A stretch of DNA of 64,000 nucleotides from Eukaryota sp. GEM-RC1 (Eukaryota), in assembly GCA_040285855.1 (NCBI GenBank), contig JAUFOQ010000016.1, positions 2,356,001-2,420,000 on the forward strand, read 5' to 3'. Below are positions 4,898 to 60,388 of this stretch, piece after piece. A program made the translations under genes and the position numbers. The first letter of the stretch is position 1, and every line of letters starts with the position of its first letter. The notes under the pieces were generated by a model, which had not been told where the DNA came from, searched no databases, and saw only the letters and a program-made list of their open reading frames with translations.

Positions 4898-6435
4898 TAG
4901 AGCTGTCAAACGGTTCGGCTCAAGCCGTAAACCGAACGACTTGAGCCAAACCATATCGAAATTTGGTTCGGCTTACTCAAATGGCTCAAGCCAAAGCCGA
5001 ACCAGTTTGGATTTCTCCAAGCCAAACCATTCGGCTCAAGCCGCGGCTTGAACTTACTTCGAACAAATGAACAAGTTGACCAGGTTCATTACATACATCG
5101 ATTCACAAGACGTACAAACAAATACAAAAAGGATTAGAAAAACCGTTAGCACACTCTGTTAGTGAATAGTGACGTGGCAGTAGTTCTTCTTCCTTGTATA
5201 GATCAATAAACAAGCTTTTCTTCATTCCATTGGTGAAAGCACCAACAACTCATAATTGTGATCATTACTGATAAAATTCGTTCATATCTTCAGAATCTTC
5301 CTTATATTAATAACTCTTTTCCACAGTGAAGGAACGTCATTTCAGTGACCATAAACTGAATCTTTCAATTTACAATTACTCAAAAACTTCTTATGTACAA
5401 TACTACCAAATTACTTTCAGGCTCGCAGTACATTACAGTTCCCATGATGACTGGTTTCTGGAACAAATGCACATCAAAGATACTCACCCCTTCTGCGTCA
5501 TCACCTGAATGGCTGAAAAATGCTTGTAACGTTACATGTCTTTTGGTTAACAAGTATCATCCTTTTGTATTTTTGTGTATGATATGACAACTTTCATATC
5601 AATGTTCCTTGATCCACGTTTTGCTTGGATGAATATGGTAGCTGCTATGAGAACTGAATCATACTTTCCGACATTTAAAGCAATGTACCATTTAAAGAAA
5701 GAAGAGCATCTAAACGCTGGGTCTAACGTACAGAACATCAGCATTGACGATGACGGTGCTGTTGATAACGATGTCATTGTTGTTGAAGACGAGGGTAATG
5801 TTGATGCTCTCTTTGACGACGATGATTCCGATGAGGAAGTGTTTTTAGAATCTCTTCAAAGTCATGAGGTTATGGAGGAAGTAGATGAATTGGAAAGGTG
5901 CAAGAGTCTATATCCAATCGAAAATAAATCATGTCCGCTTATGTGGTGGAAACTGCACAATAAGGAGTATCCTACTTTGGCAGGGATGGCTAGAGATTTC
6001 CTTATCATTCCTGCTACTTCAATTCCATGCGAAAGGGTTTTTTCTGTTGCTCACATCAAGAGCAAAAAGAGATCATCACTTGCAGACGAATCTCGAACTT
6101 CGTTAATGCTCCTAAAGGATTGGCTCAATTACGGCTATGAATTAGTTGATTGTAGTGATGACGAAAACGATGAATATGCTGATTCTTTAGATTCATAAGA
6201 CCTAAATGTGCTCATCAACCTTTGTACTATAAGAACAGTAGTTTTTGATGAGTTTCTACAATAAAAACAACTATTCAAATTGATTTTTTTATTCGAACCG
6301 AAAAAATATCGGTTTGGCTCGGCTTCAAGTCGACTTGTCACTTTGGTTCGGCTTACTCAATTGGTTCAAGCCAAAGCCGAACCAGTTTGGAATTGTACAA
6401 GCCAAACCATTCGGCTCAAGCCGTTGACAGCTCTA
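4898..6435 (+). mobile_element. Internally deleted hAT DNA transposon
   Basis: TIR TAGAGCTGTCAA...TTGACAGCTCTA; 8-bp TSD AACGGGCA (4890-4897 and 6436-6443); GGCTCAAGCC/AAACCG subterminal repeats. ORF 5575-6198 carries the hAT dimerisation domain (WWKLHNKEYPTLAGMARDFLIIPATSIPCERVFS). Confidence 0.95.
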
Positions 6436-10333: not shown

Positions 10334-12515
10334 GAGACTGACTAAATTGACAACTTACCACACAACATTGTCTAAAAACTAGGGCTGTCAATTTCTCCCA
10401 TTTCTCCCAACTCCCACCCAACTCCCATCTCCCATGACCCTTGGGAGTGGGAGTGGGAGCTTCCGTTGGGAGGTGGGAACTCCCAAAATCTCCCATCTCC
10501 CATTTACAGACACAACTCTAACTTCAATTTAAAACAGAAACAAGCTAGCTAGACAAATACAGTTATAATTTTTCTAGAATATTAATAGGACTAGGTGTAT
10601 TACATTTTTACTGTCTTTGTTTTGTTTTATTTATTTTCGTTTTATAAAGAGCGTGGTTGTTTATCTGTAAATTTCAACCAATGTCATCGCTTGATTTATC
10701 TGAAGATCCTGAAAACTCTGGTCTGTTTAAACATCCTGATTTTATTGAATTTGTTTCCTCTCTTTCAGTTTCCAAAATTCCAAAAAGAACCACGATAAGA
10801 AATGATATGTTGAATGTTTATGAGTCATTTAAAGGATACTTGATAGATAAATTCAAAAATGTGTGTAATTCTTCTAAAGTATCTATTAGGATTGATAGAT
10901 GGACATCGAATACAAACAAGCATTTTAATGGGGTAACAGTTCACTGTATTGAAGACTGGAATTTAAACATTTACAATGTACGTCCACGGTTTTAAGCACC
11001 TGAAAGAAAACCACACTGCCATCAACATTGCCGATGCTGTGGAAGAAATTATTACTGAATTTGGTTTAAAATACAAAATGTGTTGTGTTTCAACAGGTAT
11101 TCACGACTATCCGCATACATTGTATGCTAAGAACTTTATGACAACACAAGCCTCATCAGTTCCAAGTGAACAGTTATTTTCTCAGGCAGGGTGTGTTGTT
11201 ACGAAGTTACGAGCTTCCTTGAGTAGTGATTCTATTGAAGTAGTCCTTTGTTTGAAATCATGGTTCAAAGGTCGGGAGATGAGAGAGTTGTTCATGAATC
11301 AGAGATAGAGTTAGTGATTGTTATGTTTATAAAGTAAAGTGTCATTGTACTAGAAGATACAAAAATGGGAGTTGGGTGGGAGTTGGGAGAATTTGTTGGG
11401 AGTGGGAGTGGGAGTGGGAGTCTCACCTATGACAAGTGGGAGGTGGGAGTGGTAGTGGGAGAACACGTGTTGGGAGTGGGAGAAACTCCCATCTCCCATT
11501 TACAGCCCTACTAAAAACACAATATAGTAACACGACAATTCTCAGTGATGTGATGCTGCTGTTCTGCTGACGTGATCGCTTATACCACAGTATGAGATCT
11601 CATTCCAAAACATCCTCTCCTCTCATACGTACGAGTCTTTACTGCCTATGAGTGACAACATCAATACTCTTACCACCATATCTCCTCCATATTCCTTCGA
11701 AGAAGAACGAGGAACTCCTGGATACCCTGCGTCAATCTAATGCAGCTACTTCAAGATCATATATGTCGATCTTTGGTTGGAGTTGTGAGCAGATTTGCTC
11801 TCCGTCATTTACTTAGGACTATGGAAGTTGTACAAGAAATGAACTATGAAGATACTGATACTGTATTAGACCAAAAGCTGTATGCTTTAGGCTTACCCAC
11901 AAGTTTAGTTGTAAAGATCCACGTTGAAGGTGGAACCAATCTAGCAGAGGACGAGGTACATCCTCAATGGCAGATAAATGGAGAAGAATCTCAGAACATA
12001 CTTAACCAAGTTCATCCTGAAGAGATACAAGAAGATGGTGTTGAAATGCAAGAAGAACTGAGTAGATTCCGGGAACTGTGAAACGCAATTCACAATCTTA
12101 CTGAGTTGCAGCAAGAAGTGTTGTTGCCTAAACTCGAGATGGTTTTGCGAGAAGTACAATCAATTCCACAAGTAGCTGACAGGGAAGAACTTCGTTAAAC
12201 CAGTGGGATCCAGAGGAAGTTTAGCTCTCAATTCGAAGTCGTCGAAAATGAGAACCTAAACACCAGAAAATGTAGTTAGAGATCACAACAAAAGAACTTG
12301 TCCTAGAAGAAACGCAGAGCCTGCCCAAAGTGTAGCTAGAGTAGAAACCTAAGATGTATTGTACTGGAAGGTAATAAACTATTTTTGATTGAGTATCATG
12401 TAGCAATCACATGATTGAGAGGTAAGAAAGAATTGTAGCACGACAAAAAATTCTCGTGCACTATATTGTGTTTTTAGCCAAAGTTGTGTGGTAAGTTGTC
12501 AATTTAGTCAGTCTC
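10334..12515 (+). mobile_element. Mutator-like (MULE) element, non-autonomous
   Basis: About 60-bp TIR starting GAGACTGACTAAATTGACAACTTACCACACAAC; TSD TATTTCTA (10326-10333 and 12516-12523). ORF 11740-12081 (LVGVVSRFAL...LGLP) resembles a MULE transposase C-terminal region. Confidence 0.8.
10380..11510 (+). mobile_element. Internally deleted hAT transposon inserted in the MULE left TIR
   Basis: TIR TAGGGCTGT...ACAGCCCTA; 8-bp TSD CTAAAAAC; GGGAGT/ACTCCC subterminal repeats. ORFs contain IDRWTS..HFNGVTVH, HTAINIADAV and QASSVPSEQLFSQAG. Confidence 0.95.
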
Positions 12516-13219: not shown

Positions 13220-15217
13220 TCACCGAGTTCGATAAATATTTATAAGAGATGACGATCCTTCAAGACTCAACGTATTTGCTGACAAAAGTTTAGTCAATTT
13301 AGCAGATATATCTCGAGAAAATCGTTGTGACTTGACCATCCCAGTGATCAAAGAACCCAAACCATTGGAATTTAAATATTCCAACACTTTCTTAGCATTA
13401 CCTCGAACGACTGGCGAAGCATCACCAAGAAAGTTTCCACATAGATTAATGATTTTCTCATAAAAAGCATTATTAAGTGTGGACGAATTGTTTTGCTTAA
13501 CAAGAATCAACAGCGCAGCAACAGCCTCACCTCGAATAAGAGCGTTTAAATTAGCAAAATGAGGACCCAAACAGTTCAAAGCCTTGGTACAAGAAACCAC
13601 TTCAATAACTGATATCAGTGTATCATTAGCAGCTTCACTAATAAACCCATTACTCTCGCCAATTCTTTTTAAACAAAATAGACAAAAGCGGAGCTAGATC
13701 ACTGTCAATGTTACGGCCTAGAATCAAACAAACAGGTTTGAGAGTAACTAGAGCATTCTTAGCTACTTGAGATCTTAGATTGCCTGCTTGAGTGACCAAC
13801 CCAGTCAGACTTTCCTTTAATAGAAGGTAATCACACTGAGGGTCAGCAGCATAGTTCTGAATGATCTTGATAGAGTTTGCTACTCTCTCCCAATCTTCCG
13901 AGGAGTATAAGTCTTGGATGGCTGACCTCACGCTAGCGAAATAGCCAGTGACTGAGAGAGAAGGAGAGGCACAGCTGTTGTAGGAGCGATGCATTGATTG
14001 TCTGGATATTGTGGATTTAACCCCGGGATCAGAGACGGGAGAGACAGGAGCGGATACGGGGACAGAGTTAGCAGAAGGAGAAGGCCAGGTTGTTGAGTAT
14101 AAGAGAGATCGTCTGTCCTCTGAGGATTGAAGTAGACCAGCAGACATTGCTTTTCGTCTCACTTTGTTGTGCTGAGGGGTTGTCTTGGCAGATACAGTTC
14201 CACGTAGACGTTTGAGCATCGCCAGACTACTGGAGACACGTTCTTTAGGAAAAGCGTTGTTACCATCGATAGTTAGTGGAGGAACAGGAGAGATTGAGGT
14301 AGGACGAGCTGGGAGAGATTGATGTTGGGTTTGAGAAAGACTTGAGGGGGGAACGGGTGAAGGATTGACTCTGCTACGAACAGCGTCAGTAACGATGCTG
14401 CGTGTTTTGGGTTTCTTAGGAAGCACTGGGGGTGGTATTGAGGAGATTGCAGTAGCGGCTACAACACGAATACTTTGCTCTGGAAGCACAGGTAGACCGT
14501 CTTCACCAAGGAAAGGACGCTGGGTGTAGCCCAAGCGATCGTCTAGCGTGCGTAGGAACTCTTCCGATACATTTAATGACTTTAAATGAGAGATTAGAAC
14601 AGCTTCTGTCATTAGATCGCCTAAAACAACAATGCACTCAATCAAGACCGTCATGATCTTAGCATCATTATATACCATTGGAAGAAGTTCAGTGCATATT
14701 GTAGAGACAACTGACTCAGCATCGAGCCCTGGTGAACGCAACAAACAACATCGAATAATACAGAAAAACATGATTCAAGGAAACGTTTTGTTAAGGGAAA
14801 GTCTTGTTCTTTGTCGACTTGTAACAGAAGCGGCAGAACGGTACGAGCAGACAAAATATCAATAATTATATATAGACATTTGATAGCGTTGTGTCGAACA
14901 ACAAGCTTGGTTTCAGACATGCTTGATTTTACCAGTGTCATTATGAAGGGCAGTTCAGACATTACATCTAGTGTGATAAGTTTAGTAATATAGATGAGTG
15001 CTTTGAGACCATGCAGTCGAATACGGACATTTGGATCTCGAAGAATAACAGACACTGACTCTAGACAGTCACGTAGATTATGAATTATATACAAAGCATT
15101 GCGGGAAGACTTGACGAACTTGCAGAATGTTTCCGCCACCTCAGCTCGTTTTTTTGAGTCTGTAGAACTGAAATCAAATTGTATTTCGAGAGGAACCCCT
15201 GAGGGCGAGGAGATCAT
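13220..15217 (-). CDS. TOG/HEAT-repeat microtubule regulator (CLASP/TOGARAM-crescerin-like), frameshifts near 14770 and 13668
   Basis: Two HEAT-rich domains separated by an S/P-rich linker. SEDWE...NLRSQVAKNAL...KRIGESNGFISEAAN (after correction) is typical of CLASP_N/TOG domains. Confidence 0.8.
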
Positions 15218-15287
15218 GCAGGAAAGCGCCGCAAGATGGCAAGTAAGGGTGGATTTGTCTAATGAATCGACAATTGTTGTTTCTTCA

Positions 15288-18200
15288 ATGTATGTAAGAC
15301 TTTTCCCATCCATCATTGAGATTCTGGCGTTCTCAGGACCTTCAGGAATCTCCCTGAATCGTCTGTACCAACAGCTACTTTTTAAACATTCATCTCTAAA
15401 AGATGATGATTTTGTATATATCTTCAACTCTTTAATCAACCATGTCCAATACAAAACAGATCTATGGATAAAACCTCAATCTCTCATGGATCCAGCTATT
15501 CCCTTAATTTCCATACATCCTCTTACTTTCCAAATCTCCTCTCAACCATCTTCTGTAAGACTTGGAGTCACTAACAATGTCTTCTCTTCATACATTGGCA
15601 TTCCCTCTTCAACCTTCTCTACTTACTCTGACCAACGTACTGCTGTCCTCGCTGCCATCGCAGTTGGAGGCCAGAAAGGGGTTATCCAAAGTGATCTACC
15701 TAGGCTCTGCAACCTTGAACATCAAGGATCAAAGGAGGCTAATAAAACTGTTTTCTTTCACGTGAAATGTCTGCTTGAGGATGATTTGATTATTAGAATC
15801 CCAGTGAGTACTACGGTGGGAAAGTCAACCATTGCTACCAATAGGCTTATTTTGAAGCATTTTGCTTTGTCCAGTAAGGTGAAGGCTTCAAATGAGGCAA
15901 GTGATGACGTGATTTCTGAGAGAATTCGACCGAGGGTTAATTCAGCTCAAGCCATGTCTACGTACTTGTCATTTCTTTTCATTGTGAAGATGAGATCATT
16001 GATTTAGGATCAGAGGGTAAGTTTATACGTTTGAATTATGTTAAAGACGAACTTGCTAAACGTGGAATTGCAAGAAACCCGTTTTTGGAAACTACCAGAG
16101 CCTTAATCGAAGATGAGCTCATAGAGAAAGTCGTGATTGACTACGACGGAGAGCGCATCGTTGCTGCTCGATTGATTGAACCTGACAAGGCACGTGCCCT
16201 GATCCTTTCTAGCAATCACTCACATGATGACGACCCTGATGACAACCCCACCTCCCAATCATTCCTTCTCTATCAATCACTTCCTTTATCCTTCCTATGT
16301 CAGCCCTACAACACAATCAAACCTTTTGCTCTATCCAACGTTCCACTAGATCTCCAAGTCATTCATATGGTTAACAATACTGCACATGAAGGTGGTTTGA
16401 CTGGTTGTTCTGGTGTTTATCTCTCTAAAGTGCTAACGTGCTATCCTAAGTTGATTACTGCATTAGGGAAAGAATTGTCTGATAAAAAGGTGGTTAAGAA
16501 GATGAATGTACAATCTGGAAAGACCCAACAGCAGTTTTTTGGTGCAAGCTCATCATCACAAAAATTTAAAAATTCGTGTGATTTTCAAAAATGTTATTCT
16601 CATATTTCTGATGATAATGAGACTGGTGACGTTGAGGAGGGATTTGATGTAGATGAAGTTAAGAGTATCACCAGAGAGAATTCAAAATTTTCAAAATTTC
16701 GAACAATTCAATCAATTCAACGTGAAAATCGATTACTTGAAATCATTAGACAATCAATGGCGATTTCATCACTTTGTCTTCATCGAGAACTTCAGAAATG
16801 GCATGATTCCCGAACAGAAATCATTCAAAAAATTGATAGGAAGACAGTTGCTACTCTTATAGAACATCTTTCAGCAAAGAAAGAAATTTTAATTGTGGAA
16901 GATAATTCAATTGAACCTATGGAGATCATCGTTGATTCTCAATGGTTCCAAACTCTATCGTCATCAGATCAGAATTCCATTGACCAAACCTCAGTGTTTA
17001 AGTCTGCAATAGATCAACATGCGGTGTTTATGAAAAGTTGTCGTGCCCATGTTTCAGCTACTGAAGGTACTAAACGTAAATTCTTTAAATTATCTAAAGC
17101 GCCAGAAGATTCACAATCAGGCACAGCTTACGAGGAATCGTTGTTTCTTCATGGTAAATGGTGCCGGATTAAGTATTTTCATTTACTTTTGGTGTCTCAA
17201 TTATTGGTACATCGCCAATCCAACATGTATTTCCCAAGTAAACTATCAGAAGTGATGACTGTACGTGATTATATGACGCTTTTTGAGCTTCCCAGTCAGT
17301 TTCCTTCATTGATTGATATTGATTCTGATTACGGCATCAACATCATCAGCAAACCAATTAATGAATTACCAAACGACCTCCAAGCATTACTCGCAACTAA
17401 TTTCTATTCTAAAATTTCCAAATTGAACAATTTTTTGATTAAGTTAAAACTCATTCACTATGATAGTGAAAACAATTGCTTTAAGTTGTCTCTCAGCCTT
17501 TCCTGTTTAACTCTTTTGACCTAGATCACGTTACTGATGAGAGCTTTATTGACTTTGTTTATAGAGATTTCGAACTCTCTCCCGATACTTCTAATTCCAT
17601 GGTAAATACTTCCAAGGAATTCTGGCGTCATTTGGAATGTGTTGTGAAGTTCTTGTCCCTCAATTCATTTAAACAATCCGATGTCACGTCAATTTCATCG
17701 TTATTGACCCTCAATCAATGGGACAATAATCACGACAATCCGGATCAAATCTCACTAAGACCAGAAGACGTCTCTGATTACTCATTTAATTCAATTCTTC
17801 ACATTTCCACTAATCTTCAATCACCTCTCCTTCCTATTTTAAATTCTTTAATAATTTTTAAAAGTACCAATCTAGGAAAACAGTATAGCAAAAATACTGG
17901 AAGGACTAAACTATTAAAAGTCGGTCAACGTCAAGGTTCAAAAGTATCGTTATCAGCTCAAAATCTCATCAAAACGACTTCTTCTTTTGATGACGATTCT
18001 CTTCCAATGGTGAGTTCTTCTAATGTTCGTCTTTTTTCCAGGCTCATTCATCCTTAGATTATTTGCTTGCATTCTATGTGTCAATCCATCGTATGCCTGT
18101 TTCATTTGCTCTACCTATTGGCTCAATCAGATGGAAACTGATACAACGAGTAATCCATGACGAGGTGACACGTCAACAGATTGAAGTCCCTTTGGAAGAC

Positions 18201-23957: not shown

Positions 23958-25010
23958 ATGATTACATTGAAACAAAATATGAGTTATATCGCAGTAATTG
24001 ACGATTTGGATTTGGATATTTGGACTAGCTGTTTTCCTTCTCATTTACCCAGTATTCCTGAAAAATCTCCCTTGTCTCTCCCTTTATGCGTGGTCAAACT
24101 TCAGAATAAGCTTTTGAAGGCATTTGAAAACCTGGATTTTGAAAATCGTTTTAGTATTACTAAAATTAATAATCCCGTTTTTGCTGCTTTCTTAAATGAT
24201 ATTAAGAATTCAACTTGTTTGATCACTCAACAACCACGTCCTTTTGGTTTGCATTTGTCTGATGAAGCTTGGAAATTAAATATGCGATTGCGTTTAGGTT
24301 TGTTTCCTGCTGAATTGCTCGACAATTCTGAATGCGTTTGTAGTCATCGTCGCAGTGCAACTTTTAGACATGTAATTAATTGCCCCAAATTTATTCAATT
24401 TCGCTCAGTTCTTCATAATGCTGTAAGAGATGTTACATTTGAAATGTTTAAGGCTCATGGATTTCATGCCAAAGTTGAACCTTTATTTAGTAAGTTGGGT
24501 CTTGATTTAATTAATAATTCTCGTCGAGGTGACTTACATGGTCCTTTTGTTGATTCTAGTCAAATTATCCTTGATGTTACAACAGTAGATTCATGTGCTC
24601 AAACTTATGTTAATGGCTTTAATTCAAAAGGTTTTAATCACCTAGAAACAGCTGAAAAACGAAAAATTGATTTGTATTCCAAAGATGTTCCTAAACTCAA
24701 TCAAAATTTATATTCAAAATTTGTATTTGTTCCATTTGCTATTTCTATTTTCGGTAGTATTGGTGAAATGGCTTCCAAGTTTTTAACTGATTTTGGATCT
24801 ATGTGTAAGTCTCAGAATAAGAGATTTAATTTATCAATTTGGCATAATCGTTTGATTTTTTTTTGTTCCGTTCGGTGCCTAAGTTCTTTAAATCAATTTT
24901 CACAAAGTTGTATAAAGACTGTGGTACTGTTGACCAGGAATTTTCGGTGTCTAGTGTTTCATAGCTTTTATTTTATTATGATATGTATTTTTGTACCCTC
25001 CATCAATAAA
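23958..25010 (+). mobile_element. Longest copy of a 5'-truncated RLE-type (CRE/R2-group-like) non-LTR retrotransposon; no RT domain
   Basis: CxC-x7-HxxxC knuckle, RSVLHN, KVEP, RRGDL, LDVT, AEKRK and FVPFAISIFG are hallmark C-terminal RLE motifs. Confidence 0.85.
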
Positions 25011-25850
25011 CTGTTCTTTAAATATGAGTTAGAATTTGAATTTGTAAAAACAAGAACACAAGCTAACATCAAAGAATATATCGAAACCACATCACATCAA
25101 CATGAACCAAAAGCAATTGTAAAAGTTTTTAGATGAAAAGAAAAACTAGTATTCTTACTGGGATAAGTTTGAATGAGAGCTTCACGTATGATTTTGATTT
25201 CCTTAAACCCTCATCTCCTCTTTATTTACCATGTTTGAGATCAATTAAATGTAATTATAAAGCTGTGGATAGTGCTGGTTGTGTTGTATTATTTGACAAC
25301 ATTTAGTATGTTAATGTATGTAACACAGGTTGATGACAAAACTAGTGACCAAACACCACCAAAGTCACATGAATAGTCTAGATCACTGTAAGAAACAATT
25401 TCCCTAATGTAGAACGATGTTCAGTAGTGGTAAATCCACTCTGTAGCGCAGAGTCAGAAGCTCTCCTTATGGCAACTACTAGTACATGTTGTTGGTGGAT
25501 AACGAGTAGTCACTCAGTATTAGTACAAGATCTCTACAAGAGGTCTAACCATCATGGTCCCTTTTCTTCCAAATACGTCAGTTCTGTCATTGGAAGTAGA
25601 TCACCGTACATTTAGAGTATGCAGACAATTGTGAAGGAGGATTGTCGTGTAATTCAAACTCAAGTACAGTATCCATATAGAAGATTGGACATTGATGTGT
25701 CCGTTATAAAGAAGTGACTCTGTTCAAAGCAAGACAATTGGAAAGAACCTAAGCAGCGAATAAGATATTACAGTACATCATGGGGAAAAACAAGATGGAA
25801 TGGTCCAAGAGGAAAGAACTGGTGCTGTAAGACTAAATGGCTCATGTTGC

Positions 25851-35304: not shown

Positions 35305-36190
35305 CACAACTCTTGGTAAACGTGGTCTGAAACATGTAATGCTCAGCTCTACACGTTACACTGATGACGTGATGAAGTTCCGGGAGAAGGACTTCATTCA
35401 CATCCTTCAAGACAAGGAGATCCAGGAGAGTTCACCACTTATCGAATGATGGGATGTCGTGTGAAGGATTAAGTACAATACAATCAAGAATTGGTGTTTT
35501 ATTAGTGAAAAAACACACAAACTACTGAGCGTATAATGGGTGAAAGTAGTTGAGAAGTAGGAGAGATTCTATGGTTTCAAGGTCTACATGCGTAGATTGT
35601 TTTGAAATTATAGGTTTGTCCCTGACTGTATTCAATCCTTGTAGTTTTATAATGAATTGTAATCGTGGTACTGTATCCATTTACTGTATTTGAATGCAAT
35701 ATTTTTCTAAGTGATCTTAATATCTCAGGAAAATTCTGTTTCCTGTCATGTGTTCTCACGTTATCTCAATAATTTCAATACGTACAGCTATTCTTTTTCA
35801 AACAGCTGATTTCTATGTATGTATTAGTACTGTATCGAAATCAATAGGTGTAGTATGTTTAGTACAGTCATGTTCCTGTAATTTCAACTCTATCGAACCT
35901 TGAAACTACATAATTCTTGAATTTATAGGATCTCTCATTCTTCTCAACTACTTTCACCCATTATACGCTCTATAGTCTCGATTTAACCTAATAAAACACC
36001 AAAATAACTCTGGAATATATAACTTCATTGTTCAAATTGACAGCGCATGATTCGATAAGTGTTCAACTCTGAGGGATCTCGTCGTTTTGATGGATGTCAA
36101 TGATGTCCTTCACAGTGGACTTCATCACGTCATCAACGTAACATGTAGAACTGTGTTAAGCATGTTGAGGACCACGTATAGTGAGAGTTG
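35305..36190. repeat. Diverged inverted duplication (about 35305-35583 vs 35897-36190)
   Basis: 31-bp perfect inverted match at 35527-35557 / 35940-35970. Flanking decayed paralogous peptides DVNEVLLPELHHVISVTCR (minus) and DVNDVLHSGLHHVINVTCR (plus). Confidence 0.8.
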
Positions 36191-36405
36191 CACAGTTAGT
36201 CACCTACAAAACTACCACATCAACGTAGAAGACGTTGGTGTTGTATAGTAATGTAGTTTGGGATGTAAGTGAGTGGAAGAAAACCACAGAGAATTTGTAC
36301 ATGGTCGCCACGAGGAAAGAATCCTGAGACGCTGAGTTTAACCAGAACTGTTGATTGTGTAATGCAAAATGAACGTAAGAGTGAACTATTAAGAAGAGTG
36401 ACGCA

Positions 36406-36645
36406 ATGTACATGGAAGAACCTCTACCTGATAATGATAGTACTTGGGGTCAAGGACGCGTGGTTCCTGACGAGTCAAGCTTTGTCTATTATGATGACGT
36501 TCTGGTACCAATTGGAGCACCAGTGAGCCCTGAGAAGAAGAAGCATTTGGTATTGAATTATGATGAGTTCATTGTTTATGATACAGATCAAGTGCTGTTG
36601 AGATATGTTGTTAGAGTTAAGTTTGATAAAAGAAAGAGGCGGTAG
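36406..36645 (+). pseudogene. PARP catalytic-domain C-terminal fragment
   Basis: TWGQGRVVPD...VLVPIG...LNYDEFIVYDTDQVLLRYVVRVKF matches the PARP1/2 C-terminus, including the catalytic E. The rest of the domain is not recognisable upstream. Confidence 0.8.
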
Positions 36646-37250: not shown

Positions 37251-37411
37251 CTAGTTGATAATCAACAATTTCCCCCCACAATAACACTTCACGTAGCATT
37301 TGGTGGATATCATTTATGAAGAAGATGTACGTGAGAGTTGCAGAAAGTAGTGAGCTATTTGAGGAAAGAAGGATCATGAAGATTTGTTCTGCATGAGCCA
37401 GTCATGTCAAC

Positions 37412-39728
37412 TTGCAGCTCCTTCCAGTTTTGATATCACATGTGATCATCAAGTTTGTCCATGTGCGTTCCTTTTCATTCCAGTGTTTATCGTTTCCTCT
37501 GTCACATTCTGCGACTGGTTTCTCCAATAATCCTTTCCTTCGTTATTTCCGCGATCTTGAGTTGACAACAGGACTGCAATTCTTTACCTCTCAACATCTT
37601 CACTTTCTTGTAGTACAACAGGGACATAGTTCCGCCAGCAATACTGCAGTTGGTATGTAGTTTTGAACCTCGATCTAACATTAGTTCTAAACATTGGTCT
37701 CAACGATGTTCTTGTGGAAAAGCTCTCCGAAGCCACTGATCCTGTTTTCGCCTTTCACTGCTACCATGTCTTCCTTCAGACCTTTTCTTCTGTAGTATTC
37801 GGCGTTAGTCCTCAGGTTCTGTCCACTATTCTTGAAGACATTGGATTTCCAGAAGCCATGAGCCAGAAACTGGACCTTCCCAAAATGAAAAAGTTGATCA
37901 ATAACTACCACCAACGTCTTCAATCCTTGGGTCACGTGATTCCTCAAGATCCATGGGAACAGCTGTCACTTGTTGTCCAGAAACTCTCTGAACGATCTCC
38001 AACTCAATCTCTTCTTCTCAAAGTACAAGTCCTTCTTATCAGTGATTTACGTGGACCAGCTATCACCATTGATCCTTCAAGTAAATCCTTTGTTACTTGT
38101 GAACACGACTTTGGTCAAAATCCTGCTGTCCGTCAATTGAATCTCAATTACAGTGATGTTTCTCATGATTTGGATAAGTTTGTCATTGGATTGAATCATC
38201 TCACAAAGGTTGGCGCTAATTCCGATTCAAGCTCTAAGTTGGCTCAGTTACGAGCTTCACGTCTATCAAATTCTCCATTGAACTCTAGTAGAAACCGACC
38301 CAAAGTCAAACCTAGATCTAATAGATCGTCTCCTTCTAAGTCTCCTAAAGAAATCAAACGTGATCACACGATTCCTTCAATTGAACCTAAAGATCCCGAA
38401 GGCCATCACCCTTTTCTTAACGACTTCCTTCTCAATTCCTCCCTCCAATGCTCAACTTCCACCTCATCTGCTACTCCAAAGACTGGTACACTTAGTGCTT
38501 ACTGTCGACTTAAACCCACTAATGCTGAGACTGTTTATATAGACACACCAACTGATAACTCTGTCTCTATTTGTATTTCTAAGAGTTCTGCTCAAGGAAC
38601 TCCGGTTAATGGTCCTAAGTGGCTATTCCCTTTTTCTTCAATTCTTACTAAAGAAAACATACAAGTTTATGAGGAAGTTGCAGCTCCTGCTGTTGGAGAC
38701 CTTTTCAACAACGTTTCTTCTACCTTATTTACCTATGGTGGAGTAGCTAGTGGTAAGACTTATACTTTCTTTGGTTCTCCCACGTGTATTTCACAAGAGA
38801 CTATTGGTCTGATACCTTTGTCACTTCATTCTATCTTTAATCGTCTTGTTGTCGACCAGGAAGTATTGATCTCTTTTTAGGATTAAAAGATGATGCGGTT
38901 TATGACCTTATGCAAACGTCATCCGATGAACATGGCAAGAAGTCACCTACATTACTGAATTCTGCTGTTATTTCCAGTGTTTGTAACAACGCCAAGATCA
39001 CGACAATTCCAGGACTTTCCCAGAATAAAGTGTCAACCTTACGTGAAGCTCTGGAATTACTTTCTAATGGAAGTGATTTAAGGCAGTGGGAACGATCAAA
39101 GTCCAATCTAGAATCAACAAGATCTCATTTTGTTCTTTCAATTCAGTTGATCTCGAAAACTCAAGAAACTAATAGTAAATTATGTTTTGTTGATCTAGCA
39201 GCTCCAATTCAGAATGCCGATCTACCAGACAAACAGAGTCCACTGTTCAAAGAATGTACCAAGCTTAACAAATCTCTCTTCTTTTTAGAAGGTGTGTTGT
39301 CTGCTGTAACTAGTGGTAAGCCACACGTTCCTTATAGAAACTGTTTGTTAACTTCCGTTCTTCGATTTAACATGTCTTATTCCCCTAAATTAATCATGAT
39401 TGCTTGTCTTTCTCTTGATCCTGATGATGCATCTGAATCTCTTGCCACGTGTTTGTTTTTCCGTAGAATAGGGGTCTTCAAGCGGCTTAGTCAACAAGAA
39501 GCTAAGTTGAAGAAGGAAAAGCTTTTACATGATAGTCCCTTTGTAACTCCCAGTGGCTCCCTCTCTCCTCCCATGGCTGAACATCACGTGGATGTGATTG
39601 AACATTCTGAAGAGAAAGAGGATTCTGAGAAGTCTGAAGAAGAAGAAGTTGTCTTTGAGAAATCTCTTTCTTCTGAAATCAAGAAAGACTCGACTTCGCT
39701 AGTGATTCCACTAGTGAGGAATCTGTAG
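37412..39728 (+). CDS. Divergent kinesin with N-terminal PPDK-like domain (start uncertain; intron 37653-37684; frameshift near 38878); probably continuous with the downstream TM/BspA ORF
   Basis: P-loop TYGGVASGKTYT, GLIPLSL, SFLGLKDDAVYDL (after correction), switch I NLESTRSH, switch II FVDLAAP, LNKSL, HVPYRNCLLT. N-terminal VLNIGLND...FLQTFSSVVFGV...IPQDPWEQL resembles pyruvate phosphate dikinase. Confidence 0.88.
37653..37684 (+). other. 32-nt spliceosomal intron
   Basis: GTATGT...GATCTAACATTAG; removal gives in-frame NTAVVLNIGLND. Confidence 0.88.
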
Positions 39729-42700
39729 TGGAATCGGATATTAATACTGATATTGTTATTGAAACTGTTATAGCTTCTCCTATTGAAGTCACTAACCAAT
39801 CATCTGACTCTGATCTACGTGTTGATGACGTGATGTCATATTCAAAGGTTGATAGTACAGAAATGAAAGATGTAGTGTTAGAGTTTAAAGAAGATCCTGA
39901 ACCTAGATCACCGTGTATTACTAAAGTAAAGAACAACTGGAGTTTGATTGGGATCAAAAGTAGTATTATTATTGGTTTATTTTGCTTTATTATTGGTTTC
40001 TTAACTTTACTACTATTCTTTTTCTTACGTTCATCCACTCCTCCAACTTTTCTTGTATCAGGACTGATTACCAGTGATTCAGTTCCTCTTCCAGGTGTTA
40101 TTGTCTTTGGTGAAGGTATTAATGGCGTTTACAGTGACGATGATGGTTTGTTTCTGTTTGAATTGAAAAATGGAGAATATGGGCTAAATTTCCAATTATG
40201 TGGATATGATCCAAAGTCGGTCATGGTTACAGTGTCTAACAGTGACAAGTTTATTGATGTTTCTCTTTTGTTAAATACTTTCATTGTTACAGGTGTCGTC
40301 ACTGGTCATTCAGTTCCTCTTTCAGGTGTTCGTGTCTCTGGTGATGACCTTGATGACGTTTACAGTGATGATGATGGTCTTTTTGAGATAGAGCCTCTTA
40401 CAAATGGCGAGTATGAGCTCAGTTTCGAATTATCTGGCTATGATCCAAAGTCAGTCATTGTGACGGTGTCTGACAGTGACAAGTTTGTTGATGTTTCTCT
40501 TTTGTTAAATACTTTCAATGTTACAGGTGTCGTCACTGGTGATTCAGTTCCTCTTTCAGGTGTTCGTGTCTCTGGTGATGACCTTGATGACGTTTACAGT
40601 GACGATGATGGTCTTTTTGAGATAGAGCCTCTTACAAATGGCGAGTATGAGCTCAATTTCGAATTATCTGGCTATGATCCAAAGTCGGTCATTGTGACGG
40701 TGTCTGACAGTGACAAGTTTGTTGATGTTTCTCTTTTGTTAAATACTTTCAATGTTACAGGTGTCGTTACTGGTGATTCAGTTCCTCTTTCAGGTGTTCG
40801 TGTCTCTGGTGATGACCTTAATGACGTTTACAGTGACGATGATGGTCTTTTTGAGATAGAGCCTCTTACAAATGGTGAGTATGAGCTCAATTTCGAATTA
40901 TCTGGCTATGATCCAAAGTCTGTCATTGTGACGGTGTCTGACAGTGACAAGTTTGTTGACGTTTTTCTTTCCCTCACACCTACTTTCAATGTTTCAGGAG
41001 TAGTTACTAGTGATGCAGTTCCTCTTTCAGGTGTTATTGTCTCATGTGATTATTTTGATGACGTTCACAGTGATGACGATGGTCTTTTTAAACTTCAGCC
41101 ACTTGTCAATGGTGAATACGTCATCGATTTCTTTTGGAAGGTTATGGTTCAAAATCAATCAGTGTTGAAGTATCTGATAGTAACCAGTACATTGAAGTTT
41201 CCCTTGAACTCTTGCTGACCTTGGAACTCACTGTCTATGACGACGTCACTTCAGATCCAATTCCCAATCCTCGTGCTACACTCGTCAATCAAAATTTGAT
41301 TGTTGATGGAAATGAACATGGCTACATAGAACTTGTTGATTTGATTGCTGGTGATTATGATCTATTCATAACGCATTCGAATTACTATAATCGAGCTATT
41401 ACTGTCCAATTGAATAGTTCTGAGTCTAAGTCAGTTTCAATGACTCGTCATGGTTATACCATTGTTGATAACATTATAACCGATTACGATGCTTTTTTTT
41501 GGTACAAACGTCATCATTCCTTCCAGTATTAATGGTGTGATGATCACTACAATTGGTGTTTCAGCTTTTCAAGATAAGGGTTTAACTTCTGTTGTTATTC
41601 CAGACAGTGTTCAAAGAATAGATGGAAGTGCATTCAAAGATAATATCTTAGTAATTGTTACTCTTGGAAGTGGCTTGACAATTATTGGTGCATCTGCTTT
41701 TGAGAACAATGAACTTGTGGAAGTAATAATTCCTGATAGTGTCACAAATATTGGTAGCGCTGCTTTCGGAAATAATACTTTAGACACTGTCATTCTTGGT
41801 CAGTCTGTTGAAACTATTAGCGGTTCAGCATTTTATGATAATCGGCTAACATCTGTAGTTATTCCAAACACGGTCACTACTTTAGGAGCATCGGCTTTCA
41901 GGAAGAATCAATTACAAAAAGTTGAACTTAGCAATTCGTTAACAACTATTTTCAGTTATACGTTTGAAGAAAATCTTTTAACTTCTTTAGTGATTTCAGA
42001 TTCTGTAACATTTATACAGAGTAATGCCTTCCAAAATAACAAGTTAGTTAATGTTACTTTTGGAACTGGATTAACAAATATCGCAAATAATGCTTTTGAG
42101 AACAATGAACTTGTTGAAGTAGTGATTCCTGATAGTGTAACCACTATTGGTAACTCTGCTTTCAGACAAAATAATTTACAAATTCTGGTTCTTGGTCAAT
42201 CTATAGCAAAAATTGGTAATAATGCTTTCCAGACCAATTCTATATCTAGTCTTGTCCTTCCAAATAGTGTAACTGATGTTGGCAACTTTGCTTTCAGGCA
42301 CAATGACTTGGCATTTGTTTCTCTTCCTGATTCTCTCACCACTATTGGTAGCTCCGCATTTCGTGATAATGACCTCACGGAACTGCTTATACCTTCTTCT
42401 GTTACTTCTATGGGGAGCCATGCGTTCCGAACCAATCAACTGACTTCTGTTGAACTTGGTAGTTCTCTGACAGAAATTTCAGCATCGACATTTTCTGGAA
42501 ATCATTTAACTTCAGTAGTTATTCCTGATTCTGTAACATCAATCGGTACTTCTGCATTTTGGAGCAATATGTTAGTTGATATTACTTTTGGTGCTGGATT
42601 AACAACTATCGCTAATAATGCTTTTGAAATGAATCGCTTTGTAGAAATTACAATTCCTAGCGGTATTTCAACTCTTTCAGCTGTTGTACTTCGACTCAAC

Positions 42701-42976
42701 TATTTGGTTAATGTAACATTTTCCTCGGGTCTGGAACATATACAGACTCGATCGCTACAAGATAACAACATTGAATCTCTAGTATTTCCTTCTAGCTTGA
42801 AATCGATTGAGAGCGATGCCTTAAACCTTAATCCATTGCTAATGATAGAAATTGACTCAGGAGTAGACGTTCATGAGGATGCTATTCCTGGTAATTTTGC
42901 TTCACTTTATCAGCAGAATCAGGGTGGTGTCTACTCGAGAGCCACCACCGATGATTCATGGGTTCAAAGCACGTAA
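39677..42976 (+). CDS. Type II membrane region: TM helix, 5-6 carboxypeptidase-regulatory-like beta-sandwich repeats and BspA (LRR_5/TpLRR) repeats; frameshifts near 41133 and 41495
   Basis: TM IIIGLFCFIIGFLTLLLFFFL (about 39965-40027); repeats VTGVVTGDSVPLSGVRV...DDDGLFEI...GEYELNFELSGY; about 20 repeats of LTSVVIPDSVTTIGxxAFxxN. Confidence 0.88.
40261..40962 (+). repeat. Three near-identical 234-bp (78-aa) coding tandem repeats, with diverged flanking units
   Basis: TTCTCTTTTGTTAAATACTTTC recurs at 40261, 40495 and 40729. Confidence 0.95.
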
Positions 42977-43789: not shown

Positions 43790-44060
43790 ACATTCGTTTG
43801 AGGTTGGGTTTATGGCCTGTTGGTCTCCTGCAAAAGTCTACTTGTGTGTGTGGTTCTTGTTTGACCGCTTTCCATCAACTGTCATAAGTTTATTCATTTA
43901 AGATCAATTATTCACAACAGTTTACGTGACCAATGTTTAGAATTGTTCAAGAGCAATGGTTTTCATGGGAAAATCGAACCAGTTTTAAATACTTTGTCTG
44001 ACTCAATGATGAGAGATAAGAGCAGAGGTGTTTTGATTGGTCCTTGGTATGACGGTAAAT
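43790..44060 (+). mobile_element. RLE retrotransposon fragment
   Basis: IRLRLGLWP...CVCG...FKSNGFHGKIEP...SRGVLIGP. Confidence 0.7.
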
Positions 44061-44471
44061 CGAGATATCAAAACATTATTCACGATTTTTATGAGAGAAT
44101 CACCAGTGTTAGTCCCCCACGAGGTCATATCGTGCAGTCTTCGAACTGTTTCAAATGCAAAACATCTTCTACGCAAGTTGTTTGGATTTGGAAGAGCAAG
44201 GTGTTAGCACCTGATGTTTCATCTAGAAGCTCATTCCTTATAGAAAGTCTTAAACCTGAATGCTACTGCACCGTAATGAGTTCAGGTTAGTCATAAACGT
44301 CAGGTTCTTCTTGGATTCTAACTACCATCTGCAATCCCCGAACAAACAAGAAACTTGGTTCACGAATTCTGTGAGAAAGTGAATAAAAACCAATCACTGA
44401 GATGATTTAACCAAAATTGAAAACGGAACGGCATTCTACATGCTGGAGGGAAATCTGTTTTCCCTGCCCAT

Positions 44472-45320: not shown

Positions 45321-45526
45321 TGTTTTTTTTATTGAAAGTAAATGTGTTGACCTTATTTTGGGTTTCCAAATTTAAGTGTTTGTTTTGGCAAGTCTTGTTG
45401 TTTCTTAGTTTTTCTTAGTTTTTTATCACATACAATTTGTCAGTTCCAATTTTCCTCAATACTGTAATGTCAGAAACTTATCAATTGAAACAGGCGTTTG
45501 TGCCAACTTACTACCAATAATAGTCA

Positions 45527-46505
45527 TCGAATAGTCATCTGGAAAAGGCTGAACAGCGAAAGTGTTCCAATTATGCGGATGCTTTGAAGAAGCATAATGA
45601 AAATCTAAATTCTAAGTTTTCATTTGTTCCATTTGCAATTTCAATTTTTGGTCCAGCCGGTTTAAAGTTTTTCACTGATTTTAGTCTTTTATGTCGTTCT
45701 AATGGCAAGGTGTTTAATAGTGCTGTATGGATTAATGGAATTATGTTTGTTCTTTATAGAAGCATTCTCAAGTATTTAAGTTCCATTTATTCGCAGTTGT
45801 ATAGGGATAGTTCTCGTTTTGATGTGGAGAATTTTACTTCTTTCATTTTCTGAATTTTAACAGATCGTACTGCAAGAGTAAATTTGCTTTTTCGATTGTT
45901 AAGTCGATGTATAGATATGTTGATTCCATTTTGTCAAAGTTGTTTGGTAATTAGGTAGTTCGTTTGATAATTTGTTTTAATAGTCTTTATTTATTTCTTG
46001 TTTTCTTGTCACTTCGCCTTTCAGCCTTTTCCAGATGACTATTCGAATCATTCAATATGGAGTCTTGGTAGACTTTTGCAGACGGGTCAACTATAGTAAA
46101 ATCAACCACAACTTGAGATGAATCCAGGAAAGGATCAATTAAGTCACCACGCCGAGAATCAAACACGTTATTGTCACTATAATGTTTCAGAAGAGGTTCA
46201 ATTTTACAACTATAATTGTAGGATTTGCACATATCATAAGTAACGTCACGAACAGCGTTATGTAGAACAGATCGAAATTGCAAAAATTTCTTGCAACTAA
46301 CAGCATGACGAAATGTGGCTGTAGATCGGTTATCGCAAACACAAATTGAATTATTTAGCAAACCACTAGGGAATAAACCTAATCGAAGACGCATATTTTG
46401 CTTCCAAGCATCATTGTTCAAATGTAAACCAAAAGGTCTAGGTTGTTGAGTGATGAAGCAAGAACATTGTTGAATGTCACATAAAAAAGCTGCAAAGACG
46501 GGATT
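45527..46505. mobile_element. Rearranged RLE retrotransposon copy (5' part on minus 46020-46505, 3' part on plus 45527-45853)
   Basis: Minus part: CVC...HAVSC...RRGDL...HLEKAE. The plus part begins at the same HLEKAE and continues FVPFAISIFG. Confidence 0.85.
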
Positions 46506-46635
46506 ATGTTTTCTTGTTGTGTGTTTTTTCCCGCACATAAATCTAGATCCGTTTTTTCTGAATTAGTATGTTTTAATGTATTGTTGCAAATAAACTCTTT
46601 TCTTTCGGAAAATTTTCTTGAGAATGTTCTTGTGA

Positions 46636-50570: not shown

Positions 50571-51129
50571 GTAAATACCATTCATTGACATTGGCAATCA
50601 GTTCAATCTATCCAGGTCCTGGTTTGAGATCATGCAGTCCTAATTATAATGCTAAGTTGGTAATAAAAACGAATCTTGTTTATCACTACAAATAGACAGT
50701 GATATAATATCAACAAAGTAGACACCAATACATCTACATTATCTCATAGTCATGTCTCAATCCAGATGATTAATTTGATGGATGTAAAACACACTCGCCG
50801 AAGTCGATTTTTAGGCTGTGACAAACACACAACTATACATAAATAGAGACTGTTAAAACAAGGTATATAACGAACTATTCAATTCCGGCAAATATTGACC
50901 ACTAAACACCTTGGCCTTTAAAGAAATAAAGTAGCTGAACATTGACTTTAAAAAGTCGTCACTTTGATAGGCTAATGTGAACTGCCCTGGAATGAACAGA
51001 TACTTCATTTGCAATCGTTAGTAATACCGATTCATGACACAGTCTGTAATGAAAATTAGTCTCAATTCTTGAAATAATATATAAGTAAAATAACGGCAAC
51101 GACAACGACAACATGAGTAGATAAAGAGT

Positions 51130-51440
51130 TCCATCGAACCGCTGAATTTCCAACAGTTCTAACAGATTGACCAAAAACAAAAGTTTCTATACTATTACGT
51201 GCGAAAGCAAAATTACCAACAGTGGTAACTTCATCAGGATTTACGACTTCAATAAGTTCATTATGCTCAAAAGCATTGTCACCGAGAATTATTAACTCAT
51301 CTCCAAGTGTAACACTTACCAAGATATTATCTTTTTAGGCACTTTCATCTATTCTTTGAACAGTGTCTGGAATAACAACAGAAGTTAAACCCTTTTCTTG
51401 AAAAGCTGAAGCACCAATTATAGTGATCACGACACCATTT
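51130..51440 (-). pseudogene. Truncated paralog of the BspA LRR region
   Basis: GVVITIIGASAFQEKGLTSVVIPDTVQRID..., colinear with about 41533-41830; in-frame stop; truncated at both ends. Confidence 0.85.
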
Positions 51441-51506
51441 GACGGTCCTATCAATGAATTAATGAATTTCTATAAATCTTCAAGAATAAACAGAACTAGT
51501 TCCACT

Positions 51507-58372: not shown

Positions 58373-59042
58373 TGTTGGTTAGTGCTACAAAATGTGCATA
58401 ATAGAAGCTTTGTCTGGATGGACATCAAATGTAACTGTTGACAACTGAGACGATTAACATTCCGCCAACCTCCAGGAAAGTGAAAACACTCTTAAGCCGC
58501 ACAAAACAGGTGGTCATCGCCATGTTGGGCCCATGTACCGTTATTTTGGATCTACACTCCTATTCGAGATGAACAGAAATTTTAATCTGTAATCCTCTTA
58601 CTAGTCCTGTAGGTAGTCCATTATTTTCTTCAGTTTAATTGATTCTAGGAATATTCATATCGGTGAATTGGCGTGTTACATTGATTGTGGAAATCAAGAT
58701 CAAATTTTTGAATGACCCATTTACGTGTAGATGCACCAATTCAAGACACTGTTTGTTTGGTTATGTCTAGTTTCATGGAATTATTAATAATCTTTTAAAC
58801 TACTACTAGTAGTAGAAGCATTTCCAATTTCCTGTTAAACATCAGAAAATGAATTGCTTCACTCAATTTACATCTCAACTTCCTTGACTCACCCTTGTTG
58901 CATCAGCTATACAATGCAGCAACCTTTCAGTCCATCTTACCAACTTTTGGTATATGAGAACGTCTATCGTTTTTTGCGATATCCTTGTTAAAGAGAGTAT
59001 CAACATACCAACTTATTGCTTCCACTACATTCTAGATACAGA

Positions 59043-60388
59043 ATGAAACTGGTTCTTAGTACATCTGCATCGGTTCTCGGTGCATTTATATGGATCTATA
59101 ACTATAGACGCAGTCGACATCGCTTACTTCGTAAACAATCTCTTCATAACGCTCTTGCCACCTTCAACCAAGATCCACTATTCCCTCCATTCTCTGATCA
59201 ACATGTTATATGTCAACCCATCACCGTTTCATCAATAACACCTTCAAAACTTCACTCTCTCCACTCCAGTCTTCTTAACTTCTCCAGTCTAAACTTCTTT
59301 AACCTTGCAACCAACAAATCTGTCCTCAGCACGTGTGCTTCCACCATTACCAAGTACGGTGTGGGATCTTGTGGACCACGTGGTTTCTATGGTACCATGG
59401 ACTGCCACTTAGATCTAGAAACTGATATAGCTGCTCTATACAATACTTCAGATGCTGTCGTCTATCCCCTATCTCATGCAACTACTTCCTCTGTTCTTCC
59501 CTGCTTTGCTTCTCGAGGTGATCTCATTGTTCTGGATCAGTACTCTAACGAAGGATTAAGGACAGGGTCAATATTATCACGTGCGGATATGATCTATTTC
59601 AATCACAATGACGTGATTGATTTGGAAAAAGTTTTCAAAGAACAAGAACAACTTGTAGATAATGAAAGTTCGAAAAGAAGAAGAAAAAGTTGCTCAATCG
59701 AAGGAAATGGCTTGTTGTGGAATCTCTGTACTCGTCAACTGGTAATTTTTTAAATATTTCACAAATTCTGTCGTTGTCCAAACGTTACCACTATCGTGTT
59801 CTTCTGGATGAATCTCTCACTGTTGGTCTTTTTGGTCCCAAAGGAAAAGGTTTTCTTTTTCAACAAGGGTATTCTTTGGATGACGTTGACTTGTTTGTTG
59901 GATCTTTAGAGACTTGCATGTCCTCTTTAGGTGGTTTCTGTATATCTAAACACCAGCAAGCTTTGGACCACCAACGATTAGCTGCATTAGGTTATGTCTT
60001 TAGTGCATCAGTGCCTCCGTACTTAGCTTCAGCTGCCAGTACCTCTTTAAAGATAGTTCAAAGTGACGAGAAACTGAGGACTGAGCTGGGAAAGAAGTCT
60101 GAGTATCTTTCTGAGTTGTTCGGAGAGGTAGTTGGAGGGTGTGGTCACGTGGGGATTGGTGGGGCAGGTAAAAGTCCAGTGAAAGTTGTTTTTGGTAAGG
60201 ATTTAGATGATGAAGAGGAGTTTCTGAACAAGTTACGTGTTTTCTTGTTGGATAATGGTGTTTTTACCAGTATTGTACTGCGTCCACGTGTTTGTTTGCC
60301 TGTGTATGTAACAATTGAGCATAGTTATTCTGATTTAGAAACATTGTCTAGACTTCTGTTTCAAGGAGTTAGGCAGGTTTTCGTGTAG
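59043..60388 (+). CDS. SPTLC1: Serine palmitoyltransferase subunit LCB1/SPTLC1, frameshift near 59687
   Basis: N-terminal TM; KYGVGSCGPRGFYGTMDCH; GSLETCMSSLGGFC lacks the PLP lysine, as in LCB1; GYVFSASVPP. Confidence 0.92.

Follow-up and report, generated by a model that had tools for sequence, protein, structure and literature searches.

Does the locus at positions 37,412 to 42,976 of a 64,000-nt stretch of contig JAUFOQ010000016.1 of Eukaryota sp. GEM-RC1 (the whole stretch is called the window) encode two neighboring genes, or one protein in which a kinesin motor is joined to a transmembrane (TM) helix, a beta-sandwich stalk and BspA-type leucine-rich repeats (LRRs)? A preliminary description proposed the single chain, and its open reading frames (ORFs) are as it stated: the kinesin ORF ends at 39728 and the TM/repeat frame is open from 39677, with a 52-nt overlap. 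Comparison with homologous sequences leads us to conclude that kinesin, TM helix, stalk and BspA LRRs form one gene and one chain, and that the fusion is real, because two annotated Skoliomonas proteins read straight across the junction.

A search of longer proteins with the first kinesin ORF scored 7,987 candidates and gave nine hits, of which the best was P0001 (GEMRC1_001524; E 2.5e-150), a 1,694-aa protein of Eukaryota sp. GEM-RC1 (Skoliomonas) that holds Kinesin, CarboxypepD and LRR_5 together in one chain and is unbroken over ~1,660 aa. The preliminary description had suggested looking for Kinesin, CarboxypepD_reg and LRR_5 on one related protein, and P0001 is such a protein. Across the junction (P0001 residues 701-744), 41 of 44 residues are identical between the window and P0001, and the break falls at ~39699, between TCG and CTAGT. 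A second paralogue, P0277 (GEMRC1_001845), whose motor is 92% identical to that of the window, also crosses the junction in frame and continues into the TM helix and repeats. The proposed kinesin-TM-stalk-BspA chain is thus borne out by the read-through of P0001 and P0277. One base is indeed missing at the junction; the position suggested earlier, GAAATC at 39675-39680, was rejected because EIKKD is conserved in the homologues, and the true site lies about 20 nt away. The frameshift (39696..39701; this and the features below are on the + strand unless noted) is placed by the two read-through proteins within a 162-aa acidic, Ser-rich linker. Rescue of the junction by an intron was ruled out, as no splice signals were found across 39400-39960. 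The GC content of this interval was 0.33-0.38, exceeding that of two of the flanking intergenic windows (0.22), and the claim that no AT-rich spacer separates motor and TM helix was confirmed over it.

Taken literally, the window sequence holds two genes, of which the first would end at TAG 39728 and encode a soluble kinesin, and the second would begin at ATG 39833 (MSYSKVD) and encode a BspA membrane protein. Both kinds of product have counterparts, namely P0278, a BspA membrane protein without kinesin, and the kinesin-only models P0128 and P0131. Against this stand the two homologues that read through, with their near-identity at the break, and the N-terminus equivalent to that of P0278, which in the window gene sits upstream of the kinesin. 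Further, the Met at 39833 is unconserved, being Ile in both P0001 and P0277, and neither a spacer nor a poly(A) signal was found upstream of 39833. We regard two separate genes as extremely improbable. The GEM-RC assembly was corrected with Illumina reads, and its gene models were predicted by AUGUSTUS trained on RNA-seq and were validated with PASA, as described in the available part of the genome paper (PMC11316075). Some features of these models count against the fusion: they are automatic, five of nine relatives look truncated (P0128, P0129, P0131, P0277 and P0011), P0128 and P0131 stop without a TM helix, and the first 28 residues of the P0001 model match a repeat-like stretch at window 11429-11512. 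This stretch, TGGGAG-rich over 11360-11520 and an 89% match to those 28 residues, probably represents a mobile-element end that was annotated as an exon.

The window copy consists of ORFs that overlap one another (37397-37660, 37630-38880, 38841-39728, 39677-41218, 41116-41532 and 41480-42976), in which Pfam detected Kinesin on both motor halves (E 1.8e-12 and 2.5e-33), CarboxypepD_reg and LRR_5 (E 1.4e-104). A frameshift-aware alignment with P0001 was colinear from 37492 to ~42960 (5.5 kb) at the cost of four one-base breaks (~38873, ~39699, ~41133 and ~41497) and one apparent intron. The bridged frame spans ~1,850 aa with zero internal stops, which supports the earlier estimate of ~1,800 aa at a slightly greater length. 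Three of the four breaks lie in T runs and, as the preliminary description noted for other genes of the window, the NIF3 and aminotransferase genes are split by the same type of slip. The single-base slips of the window copy are likely assembly errors; a point against this is that the junction break lies outside any homopolymer. Probable exon 1 (37404..37652) is supported by homology to P0001 from 37490 and to P0278. Its start codon is uncertain, and ATG 37404 as start would require the T run near 37427-37430 to have slipped by one further base. It is followed by an inferred spliceosomal intron of 32 nt (37653..37684; GTATGT...CTAAC ATTAG), whose excision restores the frame relative to P0001 and P0278.

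The chain contains one strongly hydrophobic helix (Kyte-Doolittle 3.2 in P0001). In the window, this single predicted TM helix (39965..40027) is placed as a type II signal anchor by hydrophobicity, flanking charges and a helix in the AlphaFold model of P0278. Counted before/after the helix, Lys/Arg residues number 4/1 in the window; in six relatives they number 3/0, 4/0, 4/1, 7/0, 5/0 and 4/0. Therefore, a type II protein is predicted, in which the kinesin lies inside and both stalk and LRRs face outward or into a lumen; these counts support the N-in topology suggested earlier. N-glycosylation sequons were uninformative for topology (10 inside vs 7 outside). Of nine family relatives, seven had TM-like segments, compared with 4 among the 266 other kinesins that were retrieved. 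The stalk (40046..41450) comprises six CarboxypepD_reg-like beta-sandwich units with a 78-aa period (234 nt, 4.3 copies, 90% matches) and contains the slip at ~41133. The BspA/TpLRR solenoid of ~20 repeats with its C-terminal cap (41498..42976; stop at 42974-42976) follows an extra T at ~41497. LRR_5 scored 345 bits in the window against a cut-off of 27.7, and the repeats are of the BspA/TpLRR type with a TpLRR-type fold. The AlphaFold model of P0278, which has a helix at the TM position and is of low confidence beyond the LRRs (mean predicted local distance difference test, pLDDT, 56.8), matched bacterial BspA-type surface proteins and TpLRR in Foldseek.

The motor domain, probably derived from kinesin-9 (38488..39473, split by the slip in a T run at ~38873) belongs to the kinesin superfamily by its motor fold and by Pfam PF00225; the AlphaFold model of P0128 shows the whole kinesin fold at a mean pLDDT of 78.6 and matches kinesin structures in Foldseek (E 1e-25). 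We take the canonical switch II motif DLAGSE to be residues 231-236 of kinesin-1, and this numbering is consistent with G234A entries outscoring wild-type kinesin-1 for the window query. The window reads DLAAPI at this site (39192..39209), a departure from DLAGSE seen in the sequence, the alignment and a family census, with Ala at the G234 position and Ile at the E236 position; this Ile is shared by the window clade. All nine relatives and the window have DLAA; none of the 262 other kinesins whose motif could be read has it, and 260 of them have DLAG. After helix 6, the 162-aa linker (37 Asp/Glu and 35 Ser/Thr) stands in place of the kinesin-9 neck and coiled coil; the neck linker and dimerising coiled coil are missing as judged by alignment to kinesin-9 only, without a coiled-coil program. 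Loop 11 is reshaped in the alignment. Nine family rows (P0131 was excluded as truncated) show no variation in three segments, NxSLFFLE, PYRNC and CLFFxR; these segments are assigned to helix-4, loop-12 and helix-6 and presumably face the microtubule.

In kinesin-1, G234 sits in the switch II loop, and the G234A mutant is reported to shed ADP without microtubules (bioRxiv 2024.09.19.613825) and to show a perturbed ATPase and very slow unbinding from microtubules (PMC9998657). The E236A mutation is reported to almost abolish hydrolysis and to trap the head on the microtubule (PMC12005725). With no equivalents of G234 and E236 in switch II, and with neither neck linker nor coiled coil, the head of the window protein is probably a static microtubule clamp and not a feeding or gliding motor. 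By analogy, it may act like the G234A rigor mutant and stay on microtubules. Read as a protein that hauls prey or substrate along microtubules, the earlier proposal is weakened by the same losses, and a static anchor or tether fits better. Three points speak against a clamp: the P-loop (GGVASGKT, 38737-38760) and the switch I Arg (NLESTRSH) are intact in the window copy; the E236 position keeps Glu in the TZLM3-RCL form and has Asp in the TZLM1-RC forms; and G234A and E236A were each studied singly in kinesin-1, not combined in a kinesin-9 background.

The head is not confined to the BspA protein. When the motor region was searched among long proteins (322 hits, best 120 listed), the matches listed included four Skoliomonas proteins with E <=2.7e-78, and the next best dropped to 2.6e-28; a profile-free scan of 1.84 billion representatives added four further family members. 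The same head occurs in all three Skoliomonas genomes, in P0002 (GEM-RC1), P0010 and P0130 (TZLM1-RC) and P0011 (TZLM3-RCL), which share the order head, TM helix, two H-type lectin domains, further TM helices and a GT2 domain that bears the motifs DDD, GED and QRVKS. PF13641 scored 15.5-33.4 bits on these four proteins against a cut-off of 27, which one of them exceeded, and none of the four received an NCBIfam name for this domain. The Atlas placed it among processive GT2 and chitin-synthase-like clusters (0.96-0.97). No GT2 catalytic domain is present in the window gene. From the parity of TM helices, we infer that in the GT2 sisters the head and GT2 domain are cytosolic and the lectins outside. 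H-type lectins bind N-acetylgalactosamine, the sugar of the Giardia cyst wall. The kinesin-lectin-GT2 proteins are candidate cyst-wall or coat synthases and, as such, would be a kinesin counterpart of myosin-chitin synthase.

A quick maximum-likelihood tree was built from 68 motor domains: P0135, 10 rows from the family and 57 further sequences, chosen by taking the best 25 and then every sixth. Family members grouped in a single clade on a long branch (Shimodaira-Hasegawa-like approximate likelihood ratio test, SH-aLRT, 100). It was sister to the Skoliomonas kinesin-9 P0135 (SH-aLRT 95), across a branch of 1.26 and with other kinesin families thinly sampled. BspA-type heads were nested among lectin-GT2 heads, and the branch of the window motor was short (0.016). 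The KIF9 domain was found in 13 of 20 neighbours tested, and KIF9 accounted for two of the best three PDB hits; the KIF9 domain PF23735 was absent from the window ORFs and P0001. These comparisons suggest that the head is a kinesin-9 offshoot, whose exact sister group is uncertain because the family branch is long. A metagenome scan with the family alignment yielded 79 loci, all ordinary kinesins with 21-41% best-segment identity; the sole DLAA match (L073) lay at a frame break, looked like an intron edge and was rejected.

How did a kinesin come to precede an adhesin? P0278 (GEMRC1_004725, annotated with three isoforms) lacks the kinesin and shares its N-terminus, TM helix, repeats and LRRs with the window protein. 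It aligns to residues 32-256 of the window read-through and then again from 789 onwards, and read-through residues 257-796 match residues 2-542 of P0002. The cassette absent from P0278, a basic linker, the motor and the acidic linker, occupies 38197..39812. The simplest history would be one insertion of a GT2-type kinesin cassette into the cytoplasmic tail of a P0278-type gene; it would have taken place in the GEM-RC lineage, with the kinesin-lectin-GT2 synthase gene as the older source. The alternative that P0278 lost its motor needs more steps and is less simple. The shared N-terminus appears to be a relic of pyruvate phosphate dikinase (PPDK): PPDK P0006 matched the window in tblastn (E 3.6e-11), TIGR01828 matched P0001 (E 8e-19; 67 bits vs a cut-off of 843) and the P0278 model superposed on PPDK in Foldseek (root-mean-square deviation 2.6 A over 106 columns). 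The relic (37538..37983), the beginning of which is encoded by the 3' part of exon 1, is the N-terminal helical part and is predicted to be cytoplasmic. It would be incapable of enzyme function. Only positions ~60-210 of 865 are matched; complete nucleotide-binding, central His and phosphoenolpyruvate domains of PPDK were not found. Both in P0278 and at window 37538-37983, a BspA surface protein predicted to be type II thus seems to have taken an N-terminal PPDK fragment as its cytoplasmic domain.

We somewhat favor the view that the window gene encodes a single-pass membrane protein whose inner head grips microtubules without walking and whose outer BspA region binds bacteria or surfaces. The locked head would hold the protein, or its carrier vesicle prior to delivery, on a microtubule root, for which the cytopharynx wall, groove lip and posterior spike are candidates. 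The six-unit stalk would raise the ~20 BspA repeats off the membrane, the LRRs would bind bacteria or substrate, and the resulting load-bearing patch would hold them, with force supplied by other motors or flagella. A broader proposal, which we hold tentatively at slightly less than even chances, is a family of membrane rigor-kinesins in which a G234A-locked kinesin-9 head pins both a GT2 synthase and an adhesion receptor to microtubules without an adaptor. The lectin-bearing synthase would then follow microtubule roots in depositing a cyst wall or coat; the receptor, arising from a single cassette insertion, would link captured bacteria directly to the cytopharynx cytoskeleton. Skoliomonas is a free-living metamonad, a groove-feeding flagellate. 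According to the available part of its description, skoliomonads swallow bacteria via a long, structurally reinforced cytopharynx, one isolate adheres by a spike and one makes double-walled cysts (PMC11603281). The cytopharynx, spike and cysts are thus plausible sites for the adhesin and the synthase. Other observations are less favorable: in the same part of that description, the cells were not observed attaching and filtering and spike adhesion is reported for TZLM3-RCL alone (PMC11603281), and the BspA form was not found in TZLM3-RCL.

Three other accounts of the fused gene were weighed against this tether. The head may retain slow motor activity; with many copies of the protein in the membrane, each single-headed, bound bacteria would be moved along cytopharynx microtubules. 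Retention of the P-loop, switch I Arg and fold, the switch II Glu kept by one family member and the course of prey uptake along the cytopharynx (PMC11603281, in part) are in its favor; yet the window clade has lost the G234 and E236 equivalents, neck linker and coiled coil, and a flexible linker of 162 aa would absorb the power stroke, and we consider it unlikely. An equally unlikely account is a young, non-functional or decaying chimera produced by gene shuffling in a repeat-rich genome, in which the breaks would be true mutations and the window copy a pseudogene (one judgment covers both). No BspA form was found outside GEM-RC and the window, several paralogues are truncated, four breaks fall within 5.5 kb and 48% of the genome is reported to be repetitive (PMC11316075, in part). 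Decay is opposed by the intact ~1,660 aa of P0001, the stop-free bridged frame, the short motor branch (0.016), the same slips in nearby housekeeping genes and the existence of at least four copies. Finally, the protein may be made with a head that has lost its binding to microtubules and acts instead as a scaffold for protein binding or sorting. The 1.26 branch from kinesin-9 and the reshaped loop 11 would agree with such a head; the invariant segments, however, are those that presumably face the microtubule, and a scaffold seems distinctly improbable. The tether remains the reading that we prefer.

The nearest functional likeness is to the fungal myosin-17 chitin synthases Mcs1 and CsmA, in which, as in the window protein, a cytoskeletal motor head is N-terminal to an integral membrane protein; the GT2 sisters even share a processive GT2 with them. 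The Mcs1 head tethers vesicles and shows no motility, according to the available part of the report (PMC3252574). Unlike Mcs1/CsmA, the window protein uses kinesin and microtubules and not myosin and actin (its motor is a kinesin, with no myosin motor domain), and has an adhesin ectodomain, one TM helix and no enzyme. Kinesin-9 (KIF9/KIF6 and Chlamydomonas KLP1) is probably the nearest motor family; in contrast to it, the window head has no neck coiled coil or KIF9 tail, has a degenerate switch II and is membrane-inserted. Engineered rigor kinesin-1 (G234A, StableMARK) and E236A are altered at the same switch II positions, with Ala at G234 in every member of the present family. The latter differs in being natural, fixed in three species, built on a kinesin-9 head and monomeric, with a behavior predicted from its sequence. 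With BspA/TpLRR surface proteins of bacteria and parasitic protists, the window protein shares an LRR_5 solenoid on a beta-sandwich stalk, and it differs from them in being type II with a large cytoplasmic motor head. Such proteins are candidates for surface roles in Trichomonas and Entamoeba. The fold of the window family also matches gut-bacterial surface proteins, PcpA and TpLRR, and bacterial CarboxypepD plus LRR_5 clusters exist (scores 0.84-0.87, leads only). Plant class I formins likewise hold an ectodomain, TM helix and cytoskeleton-binding domain in one chain, but are actin nucleators of type I topology with no homology to the window protein.

Kinesins normally contact membranes via adaptors. 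The sequences of the present family are public as "hypothetical proteins". The main text of the genome paper, in the part available, contains no mention of kinesin or BspA (PMC11316075). In the literature searched on Skoliomonas, transmembrane kinesins and kinesin-chitin synthases, which covered few subscription papers, no kinesin receptor or kinesin-glycan synthase was described. Neither an LRR_5 nor a CarboxypepD form is listed in the available part of a survey that covered 1,624 kinesins; single uncharacterised models do appear there, among them KISc-Gly_t and KISc-MFS_1 (Phytophthora), KISc-ATG27 (Paramecium) and KISc-CUB-CUB-EGF (PMC2867816). TM helices in Plasmodium kinesin-X3 were not confirmed in the two papers searched. 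None of the sources searched described a conserved family, spanning three species, in which a rigor-type change is fixed. Apart from this family, the metagenomic P0105 (a cluster of 7, with members up to 5,733 aa) has a long repeat ectodomain, at least five TM-like helices, ankyrin repeats and a C-terminal kinesin with an intact DLAGSE; it is unrelated to the window family and possibly an independent receptor-kinesin fusion. P0241 (Mallomonas, EukProt) is a kinesin whose C-terminal hydrophobic tail resembles a tail anchor. Membrane-fused kinesins may recur in databases.

Elsewhere in the window, an orphan BspA LRR fragment at 51062-51469 (- strand) is 54% identical to residues 1255-1362 of P0001 and is apparently a remnant of the same adhesin family. 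The genes for NIF3 (401-1397), a TFIIIC subunit (15084-17524), an aminotransferase (58992-60388) and PARP (36051-36645) are each broken over more than one frame, a sign that the sequence contains many uncorrected indels. By eye, the ORFs at 3534-4055, 5551-6198, 23958-25136, 43865-44290 and 45524-46562 are putative remnants of retroelements and of a hAT-type transposase.

If the proposals above are true, the fungal myosin-chitin synthases would have an independently evolved microtubule counterpart, in the form of a receptor that carries a kinesin head of its own and a sister kinesin-glycan synthase. Further, the birth of the gene by cassette insertion is traceable, as both parents survive. The family seems to have fixed what is in the laboratory a rigor mutation, and would provide a natural test of the use of a locked head. 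Its members are concrete candidates, in organisms that can be cultured, for the holding of prey on a microtubule-supported gullet and for the building of an unusual double-walled cyst.

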